Shown piece by piece: positions 52,450-58,506 of a stretch of DNA of 64,000 nt. The stretch covers positions 32,001 to 96,000 of the forward strand of contig JBBRRY010000002.1 in the NCBI GenBank assembly GCA_038245905.1, written 5' to 3'. This DNA comes from Thermoanaerobaculia bacterium. Lineage in GTDB: Bacteria > Acidobacteriota > Thermoanaerobaculia > UBA5066. Under the pieces are notes generated by a model that worked only from the letters and a program-made list of their open reading frames with translations, ran no database searches and was not told the origin of the DNA. The position numbers were made by a program, and so were the translations under genes. Each line of letters opens with the position of its first letter. The first letter of the stretch is position 1.

Positions 52450-53397
52450 TTGAACTTCGCCCTGCCCGTTCTTGTTTTAGCTGCCCTCGTTGCCGTCGCC
52501 CCGGAACCCGCGCCGGATCCCGCCGGCGCCGCGGTCGTCGCCGCTGCCCGGACGGCGGAAGGGACCTCTGGTGCCGTCGTGGGCGTTTCCGTCCTGCACC
52601 TCGAGACCGGCCGCCGCGCCTCGTGGCACGGGCACGAGCGCTTCCAGATGGCGAGCGTCTTCAAGCTGCCCGTCGCGATCGCGATCCTCCACGCCGTCGA
52701 GAAGGGAAAGCTGCGGCTCGAACAGGAAGCCGAGATCCGGGAGTCGGACCGGATGGAGATCGGTCCGATCTACGACGAGTGGAAACCCGGGATGCGCGTG
52801 ACGGTCGAGCGAATGGTCGACGTCATGCTCGTCGACAGCGACAACACCTCCGCGGACGTCCTCATCGGCCTCCTCGGCGGGCCGCAGGCGATTGAGAAGA
52901 CGTTAGCGGCGAAAGGCGTCTCCGGCATCCGGATCTCGCTCGACGAGAAGGGCCTCGGCGCCGCGATGAAGAAGGATCTCGCCGCGCTCGAGAGGGGCTC
53001 TGAGAACGGGACGAGCCCCGACGCGATGGCGGCCCTGCTCGGCCGACTCTTCATGGGCGAGCTCCTTTCGCGTCCGTCGACGGACCGTATCCTGGACGCG
53101 ATGCGCCGGTGCGCGACGGGCGGCCGCCGTCTCCGCGCGGGCCTTCCGAAAGGCACGGCGGTCTTCGACAAGACAGGCACGCTGCGCTCGTGCACGAACG
53201 ATTCCGGAATCGTGACTCTCGAGGACGGTTCGCACCTCGTCCTCGCCGTCTTCGTCCGGGGAGGGACCGACGCCGCGACGAGGGAGGCGGCGATCGCGTC
53301 CGTCGCGCGCGCGGCTTGGGAAGCGTTCGTACCCGGACGCACCGTTTCCGGCGGCACCGCCCCCCGCGCTAGTCTCCGCGCATGGTCGAGTCCCTGA
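52450..53397 (+). CDS. Class A serine beta-lactamase-family protein
   Basis: Signal peptide; FQMASVFK (SxxK), SDNT (SDN), E166-like DEKGL, DKTGT (KTG). Confidence 0.85.
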   Translation: MNFALPVLVLAALVAVAPEPAPDPAGAAVVAAARTAEGTSGAVVGVSVLHLETGRRASWHGHERFQMASVFKLPVAIAILHAVEKGKLRLEQEAEIRESDRMEIGPIYDEWKPGMRVTVERMVDVMLVDSDNTSADVLIGLLGGPQAIEKTLAAKGVSGIRISLDEKGLGAAMKKDLAALERGSENGTSPDAMAALLGRLFMGELLSRPSTDRILDAMRRCATGGRRLRAGLPKGTAVFDKTGTLRSCTNDSGIVTLEDGSHLVLAVFVRGGTDAATREAAIASVARAAWEAFVPGRTVSGGTAPRASLRAWSSP

Positions 53398-53942
53398 CGA
53401 CGCCCTATCTGCTCCTGGCCGCACCCGTGATGCTGGACCCGAACTTCTCGAAGACCGTCGTGGTCATGGGCCATCACACGCGCGAGGGCGCGCTGGGATG
53501 GATCGTGAACCGCCTGCTGGGCGAGCCTGCCATCAAGCTTCTCGCGCCGCCGCTCGACACGGCCGTTCACCCGGAGACCCCGCTCCGCGTGGGCGGGCCC
53601 GTTCTCACGAACGGGCTCGTCGCCCTCTTCCCGGAGGCTGTGCAAGGTGTCGAGTCGATCGAGATGGCGCCGGGGCTCCGTGTTTCGGCGGCCGCCGAGA
53701 TCCTCCCCAGGCTCTTCACCGCTCCGCCGTCCGCGGGCACGCCGGGGCTTCTCGTAATGGGCTATTCCGGCTGGGCCGCCGATCAGCTCGAGAGCGAAAT
53801 GGAGGAGGGCTCCTGGCTCGTCCTCCCGTGGGAACCCGGGCTCGTCTTCACGAACGACGTCGACGGGCTCTGGGAACGCGCTCTCGCGCACCTCGGCGTC
53901 GACCCGGCGTCCGTCTCCTCGTCGTCGACGGGCGTGAGCTGA
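53382..53942 (+). CDS. YqgE/AlgH-family protein
   Basis: LLAAP.MLDPNFSKTVV, GALGWIVNR, GGPV, GYSGWAADQLESE...GSW. Confidence 0.92.
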   Translation: MVESLTTPYLLLAAPVMLDPNFSKTVVVMGHHTREGALGWIVNRLLGEPAIKLLAPPLDTAVHPETPLRVGGPVLTNGLVALFPEAVQGVESIEMAPGLRVSAAAEILPRLFTAPPSAGTPGLLVMGYSGWAADQLESEMEEGSWLVLPWEPGLVFTNDVDGLWERALAHLGVDPASVSSSSTGVS

Positions 53943-53943
53943 C

Positions 53944-54918
53944 GTGAACGAGCTGACGGCCCTCATCCTCCGGCACGGCGTCGGCTTCGTGTTCCTGAAC
54001 GTTTTCCTCCAGCAGCTCGGCGTTCCCGTGCCCGCCGTCCCGACGCTTCTCGTCGCGGGCGCGCTCGCGGCCGACGGGCGGCTGCCGTTTGAGAGACTGC
54101 TCGCGGCGGCGTTCTTCGCGACGGTCGCGGCCGACACGGGCTGGTTCCTGCTCGGCCGGCGCTACGGGCAGAGGGTTCTCAAGACGCTCTGCAAGCTGTC
54201 TCTCTCTCCCGATTCCTGCGTACGCCAGACCGAGGGTCTCTTCGATTCGTATGGCCTCCGGTCGCTCCTCTTCGCGAAATTCGTTCCCGGATATTCCACG
54301 GTGGCACCGCCTCTCGCGGGCGCGGCGGGTGCGACGCTGCCCCGTTTTCTGGCCTTCACGTCCGCGGGAACGCTGATCTGGGTCGGGACCGCTCTCGGCC
54401 TCGGCCTCGTCTTCCATGGCGCGATCGAGCGCGTCCTCGCGTTTCTCGCGGATCTCGGTGGCGGCGCGGTCGCCGTCATCCTGGCGGCGCTCGTCGTCTA
54501 CATCGGCCTCAAGTGGATACAGCGGCGCCGCTTCTACCGGTTCCTCCGCATGGCGCGTATCCGCGTCGCGGACCTCCGCCGGCTCATGGACGAGGGAAAC
54601 GCTCCGCTGATCGTGGACGTGCGCTCGAACAACGCGCGGACGCGCGACGGGCGGCGCATCCCGGGAGCCATCGTGGTCAACATCCTCGAGCTGGACGAGA
54701 AGATTTCTCACCTGCCGACCGACCGGGAGATCGTCCTCTACTGCACGTGACCCAATGAAGCCTCGGCGGCCCGTGTGGCACGCCTTCTCATGGACCGCGG
54801 GTTCGCCCTCGTCCGGCCCCTCGAAGGCGGGCTCGACGCGTGGGAGGAAGCCGGCTACGAAATCGAGGCGGAGCGAATTCCCATGAGTCCGACGGGTTCG
54901 TTCCCTCCCGCGCCCTGA
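53944..54918 (+). CDS. DedA (VTT) membrane domain plus rhodanese; probable selenoprotein (UGA at 54748-54750 read as Sec)
   Basis: DedA motifs (QQLGVPVPA, LLFAKFVPG); rhodanese IVDVRS, IPGA, IVLYC-T-UGA-PNEASAARVARLLMDRGF..VRPLEGGLDAW continuing in frame to TGA 54916-54918. Confidence 0.85.
54751..54793 (+). promoter_or_regulatory. Candidate bacterial SECIS stem-loop
   Basis: GGCG-GCC-[CGUGU]-GGC-A-CGCC hairpin whose G-containing apical loop starts 22 nt after the UGA; a lower stem CCAAUGAAG/CUUCUCAUGG is possible. Confidence 0.55.
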
Positions 54919-54922
54919 GCCC

Positions 54923-55333
54923 TCACGCCCGCTCCCAGACCTCCTCGACGACGACGTCCGGATGCAGGGAGCGCCTCACGGGACACGTCTTGCCAGCGTT
55001 GACGAGCTTCTTGAAGTCCTCGTCGCTGCAGGGTGACGCGATGCGGTAGCGCGCCACGAGCTTCGCGATGCGCCGCGGGGGCTCCTGCGTCATGTGCTTC
55101 TCGATCTCGAACGTCACGCCCGTCACGGAAATCCCGCTCCGCGTCGCGTAAAGGCTCAGCGTCGTCGCCGCGCACGCGGCGAGCGACGCGGCGCAGAGAT
55201 CCGTAGGCGAGAAGCGGCTTCCGTCGCCGCCGTTGTCCGTCGGCGCCGTCGTCTCGAGGAGCGCGCCGGAAGGGCCATGGCGGAGTTCGGCTCCAGTCGG
55301 AGACGTGAGTCTGCCGGAGATTGAAACGCTCAT
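54923..55333 (-). CDS. OsmC-family protein
   Basis: APTDNGGDGSRFSPTDL...LAAC, CPVRRSLHP. Confidence 0.9.
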   Translation of the reverse strand: MSVSISGRLTSPTGAELRHGPSGALLETTAPTDNGGDGSRFSPTDLCAASLAACAATTLSLYATRSGISVTGVTFEIEKHMTQEPPRRIAKLVARYRIASPCSDEDFKKLVNAGKTCPVRRSLHPDVVVEEVWERA

Positions 55334-55348: not shown

Positions 55349-56230
55349 TCAGCGGACAGCGTCCGCTCCGGGCAGCGGCCAGGCCGGGAGCGAGAGGAGA
55401 TCCTCCGGGTTCACGCGCGCGGCGCGCAGCTTCGCTCCCCAGTGGAGGTGCGGGCCCGTGACACGGCCCGTGTGCCCCGACGCGCCGAGGAGGGCCCCTT
55501 TCGCCACGTCGTCTCCCTCCTTCACGTCGATGCGCGACATGTGAAAGTACTGCGAGAAGAGCCCGGCGCCGTGGTCCAGGAGGACCGTGCCCCCGCTGAA
55601 GTAGAGATTCCCGGCGAGCACGACGCGGCCGTCCCCTGCCGCCTGCACGGACGTGCCCTCTGCCGCCGCGAGGTCCAGGCCCGCGTGAAAGCTCTTCGTC
55701 TTCCCGTTGTAGACGCGGCGGGCGCCGAAGTTGCCGTTCGAGGGCGCTGTCGAGGGCCGCGCGAAAGACGTAAAGAGGCGGACTGGCGATCCGCGGCCAT
55801 ACGCCTTGGCCACGCGAACCTGATCGGCCTTCACGCGCTCAAGCTCCTCTTTCGGCACCTCTACGTAGCGCGGGTCGACGGACAGCTTCTGGAGACGGAA
55901 GTTCCCTGCCGCGATCTTCAGCGGCCAGGCCAGCCGGGTGGAACCGTCCGGCGTCTCGAAGACGAGCGACCGCGTGCCGGGCGCCGCGGCCAGGTCCACG
56001 CCGAGGAGCCCGCGAAACGTCGTCCCGGCGATGTCGCGCTCGAGCGGGGTGCGCGTCTCCCCGTCCACCATGACGAGCGCCTGGAGCGGACGTTCGCTCG
56101 TGACCGTTACGAGGCTGACGCCGCCCTGTGTCGGAGACGTCACCGAGGCCGTGACCGTGAGGCCCGCGGCGGGGCCGGGAGCCGGACCGGCCGCGAGGAC
56201 GGCCGCCAGCAGAGTCTCCGGGAGGTTCAT
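55349..56230 (-). CDS. M23-family metallo-endopeptidase
   Basis: FGARRVYNG...HAGLD (HxxxD), YFHMS, GRVTGPHLHW (HxH). Confidence 0.92.
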   Translation of the reverse strand: MNLPETLLAAVLAAGPAPGPAAGLTVTASVTSPTQGGVSLVTVTSERPLQALVMVDGETRTPLERDIAGTTFRGLLGVDLAAAPGTRSLVFETPDGSTRLAWPLKIAAGNFRLQKLSVDPRYVEVPKEELERVKADQVRVAKAYGRGSPVRLFTSFARPSTAPSNGNFGARRVYNGKTKSFHAGLDLAAAEGTSVQAAGDGRVVLAGNLYFSGGTVLLDHGAGLFSQYFHMSRIDVKEGDDVAKGALLGASGHTGRVTGPHLHWGAKLRAARVNPEDLLSLPAWPLPGADAVR

Positions 56231-58506
56231 GGGACGAACCCGCCGGTCTCACACGCGGGCCTCGAAAGACGCGTCGCCGCGCCCGACGGATCGCCGCCCC
56301 GCCAGAACGGGAGCTGATCGAAGCGATGCCGGGAGCCCACGTGCCCGGAGACGCCGAACGGGATGACGAGGGTCGCCTCGTCCGGCGTGCCCCAGTCCAC
56401 GATGAAACGCATGGACTGCCCGAACGTCGGAGACGCGACGCGCACGACGCCCGTCGCCCCCTGCTGCGGGAACGAAGGCGGGTCGAAGAGCCAGGACAAT
56501 CCGGGCACGCGTCCGAGCGGATGGCGTACGGCGAGCCGGTTGGCCTCGCCCCACTGGAGCCGGGTTGCGTCCTTGCCGTATTTCGCCTCGAGATCGGCGA
56601 ACGCGTCGTCCCATGCGCTTTTCACGAAGCCAGCCTTCGCGCCGAGACCGGCGCCGCGGAACATCGCGTCGTCCGCACGCGCGAGATCGAGGACTCGGTA
56701 TTCCGCGAGGCCGAAGTCCGGAGCGACACGCCACGCCTTGAGCGCCTGCTCCCCGAACTTCCGGCGAAACACGCGTGCGACGAGGAAACGCGAGGACGCC
56801 GCCTCGGCTCGTCCGTCCCAGTCGTGAAAACGCGCGCCCCAGTCCGGCGGAAGAAAGGGAACGAGCGCCTCCATCGTGGCCGCGAGGACCGGCGACGCCG
56901 TATCGAGCTGCATCGCCTCGACAGCGGCGCGATCGAGCTTCTGTCCCGCACGCCCCGCCCCTTCGAGCATCGTCGCGATCCGACGCGCCCGTGCGGGCGA
57001 GGGCGAGTCGGTCCCGAGGACGTGAGGCCAGCTCGTGCCCGCGACGCGTTGATTCGCGGTCGCAAGAAATCCCTCTCTGGGGTTCACGAGGCGCGGCATT
57101 TCGTCCTGGGGGACAAACCCGGTCCAGTCGTTCCGAGCGTCCGAGCCGTCGTAGGGAATGCTGCCGTCCGTTCCGGGGCGGCGGACCGGCACGAGGCCCG
57201 TCGCCCGCCAGCCGATATTCCCGCCGGAGTCCGCCCAGACGACGTTCTGCCCGGGCGCGAGGAACCCATCGAGCGCTCTCTCGACACTCTCGGCGTCCCC
57301 GGCCCGCATCACGTTCGAAGACGGAAGCCTCAGGTTCGCGGGGTCCAGCGCGACCCACTTCAGGGCGAGATTCTCCGTGACGAGAGGACCGTGCGACGTC
57401 GAGCGGACGACGAGTCGCTCCGCGGCGGCTCCACGGACCGAAATCGTCTCCTCGCGCAGGGCGACTTTCTCCCACTCCGCGCCGCGCTTCGCCCCGCTGT
57501 CGACAATCGTCTCCCTGTAGAGGTCCTGCACGTCGGAATAGAGGTTCGTGAACGCCCACGCGACGCGCTCGTTCCGTCCCAGCGTCACGCCGGGCAGGCC
57601 GGGCAGCGTGACCCCCTCGACGAGGTGCCCGCCGATGACGAACCGCATGGGCAGCCAGATTCCAGGCGCGCCGATTCCGAGGTGCGGATCGTTCGCCAGG
57701 ATCGGCTTGCCGCTCTTCGTGAGGGCGCCCGAAACGGCCCAGCTGTTCGATCCCGGCGCCTCGTCCGGATCGCCCTCCGCCCGGAAGCCGAGGGCCCGGG
57801 TGGGCGCCGCATCGCCCGGAACCGGCAGCGGCGGCAGTTCGGGCTTCCCGGCATCGGGAACGAGCACGAGATCGTCGGCCGTGAAGCCGGACGTGAGGAA
57901 GCGCCGCACGGAGGACGGCCGCGAGAGGAGGCGCTCCGTGGCGATCTCTTTCCTCCACGTGGAGGAGATCTCCTCGCACATCATGAGAAGGACGCGGAGC
58001 GAGTCGGCGGGAGTGAATCTCCGCGGCGTCAGGCCGAGAAGGGTGAACTCGAGCCCCCAGCGTCCCTTGTGCGTGTCGAGAAAGGCGTTGATGCCGTCGG
58101 TCAGAGCGGCCACGTCCGCGCGTTCGTTCGCCGGAAGGAGCGGGACGGCCGCCTCGGCGACACGCGAGAAACCGTAGATCCTGTGCAACCGGTCCGAGGG
58201 AAGCGCGGCGCTGCCGAAGATCTCGGCGAGCTCGCCGCCCGCCAGCCGGCGCTGCAGCTCCATCTGGAAAAGCCTCTCGCGCGCCGTTAGATATCCCTGG
58301 GCCCGAGTGGCGTCTCCGGTATCGGCCGCTGTGATCGTGGCGACGCCGTGGTCGTCGAACGCGACGGTCACCCTCGCGCGGAGTCCGGGGATCTTCGGAA
58401 ACGACAGGTCCGGGAGGTTTCGGAACACGAGAACGCCGAGCGTGGCACCGGCGACGAGCACGGCCGCGACGGTCGCCGCCGCGATCCTCCCCAGCACGCG
58501 CTTCAT
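56227..58506 (-). CDS. Penicillin acylase / AHL-acylase family Ntn hydrolase
   Basis: AQGY..A.ERLFQMELQRR, GSNSWAVSG (N-terminal Ser nucleophile), ILANDPHL, GRNERVAWAFTN, ATANQR. Confidence 0.92.
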   Translation of the reverse strand: MKRVLGRIAAATVAAVLVAGATLGVLVFRNLPDLSFPKIPGLRARVTVAFDDHGVATITAADTGDATRAQGYLTARERLFQMELQRRLAGGELAEIFGSAALPSDRLHRIYGFSRVAEAAVPLLPANERADVAALTDGINAFLDTHKGRWGLEFTLLGLTPRRFTPADSLRVLLMMCEEISSTWRKEIATERLLSRPSSVRRFLTSGFTADDLVLVPDAGKPELPPLPVPGDAAPTRALGFRAEGDPDEAPGSNSWAVSGALTKSGKPILANDPHLGIGAPGIWLPMRFVIGGHLVEGVTLPGLPGVTLGRNERVAWAFTNLYSDVQDLYRETIVDSGAKRGAEWEKVALREETISVRGAAAERLVVRSTSHGPLVTENLALKWVALDPANLRLPSSNVMRAGDAESVERALDGFLAPGQNVVWADSGGNIGWRATGLVPVRRPGTDGSIPYDGSDARNDWTGFVPQDEMPRLVNPREGFLATANQRVAGTSWPHVLGTDSPSPARARRIATMLEGAGRAGQKLDRAAVEAMQLDTASPVLAATMEALVPFLPPDWGARFHDWDGRAEAASSRFLVARVFRRKFGEQALKAWRVAPDFGLAEYRVLDLARADDAMFRGAGLGAKAGFVKSAWDDAFADLEAKYGKDATRLQWGEANRLAVRHPLGRVPGLSWLFDPPSFPQQGATGVVRVASPTFGQSMRFIVDWGTPDEATLVIPFGVSGHVGSRHRFDQLPFWRGGDPSGAATRLSRPACETGGFVP

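Follow-up and report, generated by a model that had tools for sequence, protein, structure and literature searches.

Within a stretch of 64,000 nucleotides from the genome of a Thermoanaerobaculia bacterium (Acidobacteriota; assembly GCA_038245905.1, contig JBBRRY010000002.1, positions 32,001 to 96,000 of the forward strand), hereafter called the window, we have analysed a gene that joins a DedA membrane domain to a rhodanese domain and that carries a TGA codon within its reading frame. Judged from its sequence, this is very probably a genuine selenoprotein gene, in which the UGA is predicted to be recoded as selenocysteine (Sec, U) at residue 269. A recoding signature around this codon, the conservation of a selenocysteine insertion sequence (SECIS) behind it, the Sec machinery of the genome and the fold of the product have been established by computation.

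The in-frame UGA and its conservation

The coding frame opens with a GTG at 53944 on the + strand and, in the ordinary open-reading-frame reading, meets the TGA at 54748-54750 as codon 269. The choice of this start is supported by the orthologs, which align from residue 1 and in most cases have only 2-4 open codons upstream. The first-pass annotation of this DNA had proposed that the frame stays open past the TGA and that the downstream part completes the rhodanese domain, and both proposals have been borne out: 55 further open codons (PNEASAARVARLLMDRGF...GGLDAWEEAGYEIEAERIPMSPTGSFPPAP) lead to a second TGA at 54916-54918, and the Pfam Rhodanese match (residues 209-302) spans the first one. 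The sequence across the Sec site reads ...EIVLYCT-U-PNEASAAR..., and the read-through part C-terminal to residue 269 includes the peptides LLMDR and GFALVRPLEGGLDAWEEAGYEIEAER.

The read-through protein has been searched in 40 relatives as well as in the window's own genome, which has yielded 33 full-length orthologs from three families and nine genera (54-100% identity), every one with an internal TGA. Once realigned, the TGA occupies the identical codon in 33 of 33 (31 of 31 without the unpublished genomes G025 and G030), and the invariant motif LYCT-U-PNEASAARVAR surrounds it in all of them. Five more genomes carry the gene in split or frameshifted form with the TGA in the C-terminal piece, and paralog-level matches only have been obtained in G002 (79% complete), G012 (74%) and G013 (97%). 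The sample has been widened to 301 genomes of the phylum, 53 of which have a match at E up to 1e-40; of the 44 further loci examined, 27 have TGA at the aligned position and 17 have TGC or TGT. This brings the TGA form to 60 loci in the sampled genomes of one phylum, with identities down to ~33%. The earlier prediction would have suffered if all close relatives had carried TGC or TGT here, as expected after a recent nonsense mutation; TGA has been found in all 33 orthologs, and Cys codons occur only in distant homologs.

The protein databases contain both forms. Among the 120 best homologs, 84 end exactly at ...YC[T/S/A], 34 are full-length with a CxC motif and two have other forms. The truncated ones are 268-residue proteins with source names that include 'Thermoanaerobaculia bacterium', and the names attached to the full-length CxC proteins include 'Terriglobales' and 'Steroidobacteraceae'. 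When 31 full-length homologs are aligned, Cys stands without exception at position 267 and in the column of the UGA (YC[T/S/N]-C-PNEASAA), so that the YCxCPNE motif given in the first-pass annotation has been recovered with its second Cys on the UGA. A set of 99 more diverse full-length homologs has both Cys in 93 cases, the second only in two, the first only in one and neither in three, which places Cys at the UGA column in 95 of 99; and of the 150 best cluster representatives at 50% identity, 98 have the CxC motif and 26 stop at the Sec codon. A quick tree of 77 sequences, with a midpoint root that serves for display only, requires two changes of the Sec/Cys label, and the Cys forms fall into two clades, with 15 rows in f38 and 2 rows in f29. 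As a side observation, one database protein of 2327 residues (P0127) has been matched by the rhodanese part in 16 separate stretches and is a giant multi-rhodanese repeat protein.

One may read the TGA as a true stop, in which case the product would be a DedA protein of 268 residues that ends in the vestige of half a rhodanese, and what follows the TGA would be a decaying remnant left by pseudogenisation or a recent nonsense mutation, or else the TGA would be an assembly or sequencing error. Public gene callers have in effect adopted this reading by ending 84 of the 120 nearest homologs at the Sec codon, a truncation that had been foreseen for the present gene, and UGA is an ordinary terminator in these genomes as well, since TGA ends 30 of the 33 orthologs (TAG ends two and TAA one). 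What speaks against a true stop is the retention of the same TGA at all 60 loci, together with the behaviour of the ~40 residues downstream, whose substitution pattern is that of purifying selection on the protein, with synonymous sites changing freely except in the hairpin described below: all 33 orthologs have, for instance, V290, R291, P292, G295 and G296, at a synonymous entropy of 1.35-1.66. Moreover, the rhodanese fold needs the helix and the strands that lie downstream. An error at the TGA, which had been considered from the outset, is contradicted by contigs of the probable source run, which have 0 differences across the TGA and the hairpin, and by contigs of an independent study, which derive from relatives (25-35 differences over the gene) and cover the site with no indels and with none of the listed differences between 54706 and 54868. 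An RNA-library contig from a relative (X16) likewise spans 54670-54867 with 9 differences, which is no proof of transcription or translation. Conservation across the aligned sequences effectively refutes a true stop, and we regard its probability as close to nil.

The SECIS-like hairpin and the selenocysteine machinery

Directly behind the UGA, the transcript can form a short hairpin (Table 1), the loop of which, CGUGU, begins at the 22nd nucleotide after the UGA; the usual UGA-to-SECIS spacing lies in a window of 16-37 nt. Bacterial SECIS elements are recognized as hairpins that follow the UGA immediately on its 3' side and have a G in their small apical loop (PMC1088965), and such an arrangement is present at 54765-54784. 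The constraint on this segment is visible in the codons themselves. Across the 33 orthologs, 100 codon columns have a conserved residue of four- or six-fold degeneracy, and the sole six columns with a synonymous entropy below 0.35 are codons 274-278 and 280 (TCG GCG GCC CGT GTG ... CGC), compared with a mean of 1.29 elsewhere. Synonymous variation is zero in five of the 100 columns, all of them among these six codons, and a clustering of frozen columns in codons 274-280 of this kind has been reached in 0 of 100,000 permutations. The third base of codon 279, which corresponds to the predicted bulge, has an entropy of 1.77.

A second line of evidence has been obtained by comparing the 60 TGA forms, which amount to 56 distinct 45-mers, with the 17 Cys forms. 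A stem of at least 4 bp that closes the same 5-nt loop has been found in 56 of 56 distinct TGA forms (4 bp in 5 forms, 5 bp in another 5, 6 bp in 15 and 7 bp in 31) vs 2 of 17 Cys forms, the remainder of which have no stem (10) or a stem of 3 bp (5). Loop position 2 is G in every distinct TGA form and in 2 of the 17 Cys forms; most Cys forms have Lys in place of the Arg whose codon makes up the loop. The loops of the TGA forms are CGUGU (42), CGGGU (8), CGUGC (3), CGGGC (2) and AGUCU (1). The single AGUCU belongs to the ortholog of G074 (L067:2296-2340), in which it has taken the place of the usual CGKGY loop on an otherwise similar GCGCC/GGCGC stem; the same loop is used by SelD and by a gene of the FdhA type in the window's genome. 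A further observation concerns contig depth in the probable source metagenome run: the summed depth rises about four-fold over 54736-54801, which contains the TGA and the hairpin (264 and 234 vs ~60), and it is only there that short contigs from other members of the community align. Such a pattern is in line with this segment being better conserved at the nucleotide level than any other part of the gene family.

The genome (96.4% complete, 68% G+C) has been found to contain all four of selA, selB, selC and selD, on the presence of which the earlier prediction had been made to depend. SelA (356.8 bits; L001, G000 contig C2:23330-24421) is encoded on the same contig as the gene, ~7.6 kb upstream of window position 1, and the wing domain of SelB has been detected with 61.6 bits. 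The tRNA-Sec scores 62 bits vs a gathering score of 47 bits and is called by ARAGORN as tRNA-SeC with the anticodon tca. SelD (333.6 bits; L003:26-994, G000 contig C11) has an in-frame TGA of its own at ...SSAG-U-ACKLG... (L003:47-49), followed by the hairpin CUGGGUC-AGUCU-GACCUGG with the loop 17 nt after the UGA. Beyond this genome, SelA is present in five of five distant genomes with the TGA form; among five genomes with the Cys form, all ~99% complete, it is full-length in one, represented by weak partial matches in one and without a match in three.

SelD is one of four other selenoprotein genes of the genome, in which the loops start 17-19 nt after the UGA and have G-U at loop positions 2-3. 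A molybdopterin oxidoreductase of the formate-dehydrogenase alpha (FdhA) type with a twin-arginine (TAT) signal (L099:1-1680, minus strand; G000 contig C21:742-2421) has its in-frame TGA at ...SQARV-U-HGPTVA... and a SECIS-like loop, AGUCU, identical to that of SelD. A Redoxin/AhpC-TSA protein (L100:1-1059; G000 contig C4:21870-22928) has its TGA in W-U-P-A-C (UxxC) with the loop AGUU; a DUF1223 match follows the Redoxin/AhpC-TSA part in the same frame, which may be one fusion or two genes. A GrdB-like protein (L101:1-771, minus strand; G000 contig C3:136685-137455; Pfam GRDB 40.5 bits) has its TGA in L-U-P-M-C and a 7-bp hairpin with the loop CGUCG, which starts 18 nt downstream of the UGA. 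A loose genome-wide scan for TGA codons with a 3-bp stem and a CGKGY loop behind them has been abandoned, as its 207 raw matches were almost all junk frames of a G+C-rich genome. A stricter scan with filters on coding G+C at the third and second codon positions (GC3 and GC2) has left 22 candidates, four of which have been checked by Pfam; three of these are known selenoprotein types, and the fourth (L102), which matches no Pfam family, has been dropped.

In principle, the UGA could be read through by a route other than Sec, that is by near-cognate suppression with Trp, Cys or Arg or by a lineage-wide reassignment of TGA, with the hairpin merely stimulating the event. The inserted amino acid cannot be told from sequence, and stimulatory downstream hairpins exist for recoding events other than Sec. 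A reassignment is contradicted by the use of TGA as terminator in 30 of the 33 orthologs and in the upstream neighbour. Furthermore, the aligned residue in the homologs is Cys, the standard counterpart of Sec, the presence of SelA follows the TGA form in the ten distant genomes as described above, and both the position of the hairpin and its small G-containing loop match those of the four other selenoprotein genes. We consider a non-Sec route very improbable.

With recoding to Sec, a ribosome that arrives at the UGA would meet a hairpin 15-35 nt downstream that would act as a bacterial SECIS element and recruit SelB with its Sec-tRNA(Sec); selenocysteine would be inserted as residue 269, and translation would continue to the TGA at 54916. 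Several results weigh against this assignment or leave it without help. That the protein contains selenium is itself a prediction from the sequence. The folding energy of the hairpin does not stand out from that of dinucleotide shuffles (z = +0.54, 140 of 200 shuffles at least as stable, at 68% G+C), so that, of the hairpin proposed in the first-pass annotation, the structure and the position (54765-54784, loop at the 22nd nucleotide) have stood, and the folding energy, being not significant, has been dropped as evidence. A scan of 54600-55000 against Rfam at E up to 10 has returned no SECIS family; its sub-threshold matches to Guanidine-III (14.9 bits) and mir-2545 (14.4 bits) are unrelated and have been set aside. 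Classical covariation is weak, as the three apical pairs are constant, with a single U-G wobble, and the outer stem occurs in two registers, and controls with slid partners have reached similar covariation scores (0.111 and 0.179 vs 0.086). Consequently, the RNA argument rests on the frozen synonymous sites and on the Sec-versus-Cys contrast. Regarding the catalytic residue, sequence alignment to solved rhodaneses places the catalytic Cys of 6mxv on U269 without a gap, whereas those of 6pfz and 3tp9 fall on C267, each with a 2-residue gap; C267 and U269 are both inside the 3-residue strand-to-helix connection of the AlphaFold2 (AF2) model. Finally, among 96 flanking open frames in 24 loci no conserved neighbour has been found, and none of the window's five neighbours is conserved beside the distant orthologs, so that the context gives no hint on function.

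Domain architecture and possible chemistry

The product would be a 324-residue inner-membrane protein, composed of an N-terminal helical bundle of the DedA/VTT type, a last transmembrane helix, a basic linker and the rhodanese domain (Table 1). The AF2 model, which has been built on 100 homologs (predicted local distance difference test, pLDDT, 93.7; predicted template modelling score, pTM, 0.85), has a helical membrane domain and an alpha/beta rhodanese domain. Foldseek has matched the latter to the solved rhodaneses 3tp9, 3gk5, 2hhg, 3ilm, GlpE 1gmx and YgaP 5hbl with a probability of 1.00 and with template modelling (TM) scores on the target of up to 0.8 against single-domain rhodaneses such as 3gk5, 3ilm and 1gmx; for the DedA half, it has found no match among solved structures. 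In the model, a central strand (263-266) is followed by C267-T268-U269 in coil, which form the whole connection, and then by a helix (270-284). The rhodanese domain is probably cytoplasmic, a placement based on the positive-inside rule and on the basic residues KWIQRRRFYRFLRMAR that follow the last membrane helix.

Table 1. Coordinates of the gene, its predicted elements and its neighbours, counted from the first letter of the window
Feature	Position	Strand	Remarks
Class A beta-lactamase-family protein	52450-53397	+	neighbour
AlgH-like (DUF179) protein	53382-53942	+	neighbour; ends in a TGA that precedes the predicted selenoprotein's GTG start by 1 nt
Predicted DedA-rhodanese selenoprotein, coding sequence, complete	53944-54918	+	324 residues; predicted Sec at 269; GTG start; TGA terminator
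DedA/VTT membrane domain, residues 29-154	54028-54405	+	Pfam PF09335, 46.2 bits (cut-off 33.9); all-helical in AF2, pLDDT mostly >90
Cys pair C83...C92 (LCKLSLSPDSCV) within the DedA domain, specific to the family	54190-54219	+	kept in 33/33 orthologs
Last long helix, residues 173-201	54460-54546	+	AF2 helix; transmembrane segment, then basic KWIQRRRFYRFLRMAR; joins the rhodanese
Rhodanese domain, residues 209-302	54568-54849	+	Pfam PF00581, 52.7 bits (cut-off 22.2); spans the UGA
Cys267 codon, first residue of the C-x-U motif	54742-54744	+	C in 33/33 orthologs, 27/27 distant TGA forms, 94/99 full-length homologs
UGA, predicted selenocysteine codon 269	54748-54750	+	same codon in orthologs; Cys codon in some distant homologs
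SECIS-like hairpin	54765-54784	+	stem GGCGGCC (54765-54771) / GGC-(A)-CGCC; 5-nt loop CGUGU (54772-54776); bulged A 54780; CGCC 54781-54784
True terminator TGA	54916-54918	+	ends the read-through frame
OsmC-like protein	54923-55333	-	neighbour, convergent
M23 peptidase	55349-56230	-	neighbour
Penicillin amidase	56227-58506	-	neighbour

The DedA half differs from the canonical members of its superfamily. In the available text of 'Three Bacterial DedA Subfamilies' (PMC10127716), the superfamily is viewed as lipid flippases or scramblases, and the putative undecaprenyl-phosphate (UndP) flippases (COG0586) are defined by the YghB residues E39, D51, R130 and R136, of which the acidic pair E39 and D51 belongs to re-entrant helix 1 and the basic pair R130 and R136 to re-entrant helix 2. 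A canonical DedA paralog of the window's genome (260.6 bits against NF008102, cut-off 236) has the corresponding E40, D52, R130 and R136. In the fusion, Q23 stands in place of E40 (E in 25 of the 33 orthologs), V32 in place of D52, the equivalent of YghB D51 (hydrophobic in 33 of 33, never acidic), K112 in place of R130 and S118 in place of R136 (the latter two in 33 of 33). The hallmark set is thus incomplete, and the fusion falls far short of the cut-offs of NF008102 and of the UptA models. As two of the four hallmark residues are missing, the DedA half is atypical by its sequence and probably has a substrate other than UndP. The fusion also carries a pair of cysteines, C83 (in 93 of the 99 full-length homologs) and C92 (in 92), of which the canonical paralog has no equivalents.

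The active-site connection between strand and helix would be Cys267-Thr268-Sec269. Within it, Sec269 may be the nucleophile to which a sulfane-sulfur or selenium atom is bound, or it may form a selenenylsulfide with Cys267, and the membrane domain would either position this chemistry at the membrane or exchange an atom or electrons with it, possibly through the Cys83/Cys92 pair. One may alternatively postulate a selenoprotein in which C-x-U is a redox switch or sensor that would regulate a lipid-flipping DedA domain by a reversible selenenylsulfide and would not be a sulfur or selenium transferase. Such a switch is in line with the co-conservation of Cys267 and Sec/Cys269, both of which are found in 93 of 99 full-length homologs, with the redox role generally assigned to CxU and CxxU in other predicted selenoproteins, as far as the available text of the sources goes (PMC1976440, PMC13188914), and with the view of DedA proteins as lipid flippases or scramblases cited above (PMC10127716). 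It is at odds with a domain that is a rhodanese by both sequence and fold, and with a DedA half that is devoid of equivalents of D51 and R136, which are held essential for UndP flipping. A regulatory switch is conceivable, and we rate it as rather unlikely.

A more far-reaching variant of the transferase chemistry would be a chalcogen relay at the membrane, in which the Sec269/Cys267 centre loads or unloads sulfur or selenium and exchanges it with Cys83/Cys92 in the DedA half, which would move it into or across the membrane. The carriers would be persulfide, perselenide or selenotrisulfide-type species, and Cys83/Cys92 and the rhodanese would have to share one side of the membrane. This proposal draws on the loss of UndP-binding residues and the gain of Cys83/Cys92 in the DedA half, and we offer it as a speculation of low probability. 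If true, it would describe a dedicated transporter for selenium and sulfur trafficking with Sec as its own catalytic residue, would provide DedA proteins with a substrate that is not a lipid and would account for an old genetic link between DedA and selenite. That link has reportedly been drawn by Ledgham et al. in 2005, a single source that is known as a reference-list entry only.

Known relatives and meaning for the family

The closest described counterpart is NF041203 (rhodanese_LYCAU, 'rhodanese-related (seleno)protein'), which is the best NCBIfam match of the protein (residues 203-309 vs profile positions 20-125 of 126) and shares with it the domain type and the LYC-x-U motif, here LYCTU in all 33 orthologs. 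At 77.7 bits (73.3 in the genome search), the match is below the curated cut-off of 115 bits, and in contrast to the stand-alone family of ~126 positions, the domain forms here the C-terminal third of a membrane protein. A genome search has found no stand-alone member of NF041203 in the window's genome. In two relatives, second and shorter rhodanese-only matches with an in-frame TGA have been seen (G026:C187:253-576 and G032:C34:9623-9952, 37-43% identity to residues 201-310), which may represent CxU rhodanese selenoproteins that stand alone, as those of NF041203 do. According to the available text of two reviews, the rhodanese-like 'form 3', equal to COG0607 form 2 with CxU, is a computationally predicted selenoprotein with a function that is not known (PMC13188914, PMC9312934).

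A precedent for a Sec-rhodanese joined to a membrane module that handles thiols has been TsoB (NF045694, 'rhodanese form 5'), in which, as the accessible part of the review describes it, the partner is DsbD-like and not DedA and the motif is UxxxxU with two Sec (PMC13188914). NF045694 is not among the nine NCBIfam families that match the present protein at E up to 0.01. GlpE (1gmx) and YgaP (5hbl/5hbo) have the rhodanese fold in common with it (Foldseek target TM-scores of 0.77 and 0.65, respectively) and differ by Cys in place of Sec, a canonical single-Cys loop and the absence of a DedA domain; YgaP is membrane-anchored.

Fusions of DedA (COG0586) to rhodanese with the same PF09335 + PF00581 architecture are in print: the available portions of the subfamily paper report that such fusions exist in the COG0586 subfamily and that it is not clear how they relate to UndP, and selenocysteine goes unmentioned in those portions (PMC10127716). 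A literature search has found no DedA selenoprotein, although supplementary tables of selenoproteome surveys might list one, and no paper that brings 'selenoprotein', 'rhodanese' and 'DedA' together. The terms 'DedA', 'VTT', 'SNARE' and 'PF09335' are absent from the main text of a 2026 review (PMC13188914), and 'DedA' is absent from that of a 2022 review (PMC9312934). What is new here is thus the membrane-integral DedA fusion of the predicted CxU rhodanese selenoprotein type, as the architecture has been published, but not as a selenoprotein.

If the assignment is true, it would add a widespread, two-domain and membrane-integral member to the predicted CxU rhodanese selenoproteins, encoded by a gene that is almost always mis-annotated as a 268-residue protein. 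Owing to this systematic truncation, the selenoproteome counts for Acidobacteriota of soils and sediments would be underestimates. The split between Sec and Cys forms, which tracks the presence of SelA, would provide a clean natural experiment on the exchange of Sec and Cys. DedA proteins and CxU rhodaneses are both without a settled biochemical function, and a fusion of the two in which Sec is the presumed catalytic residue would point to a specific chemistry at the membrane.

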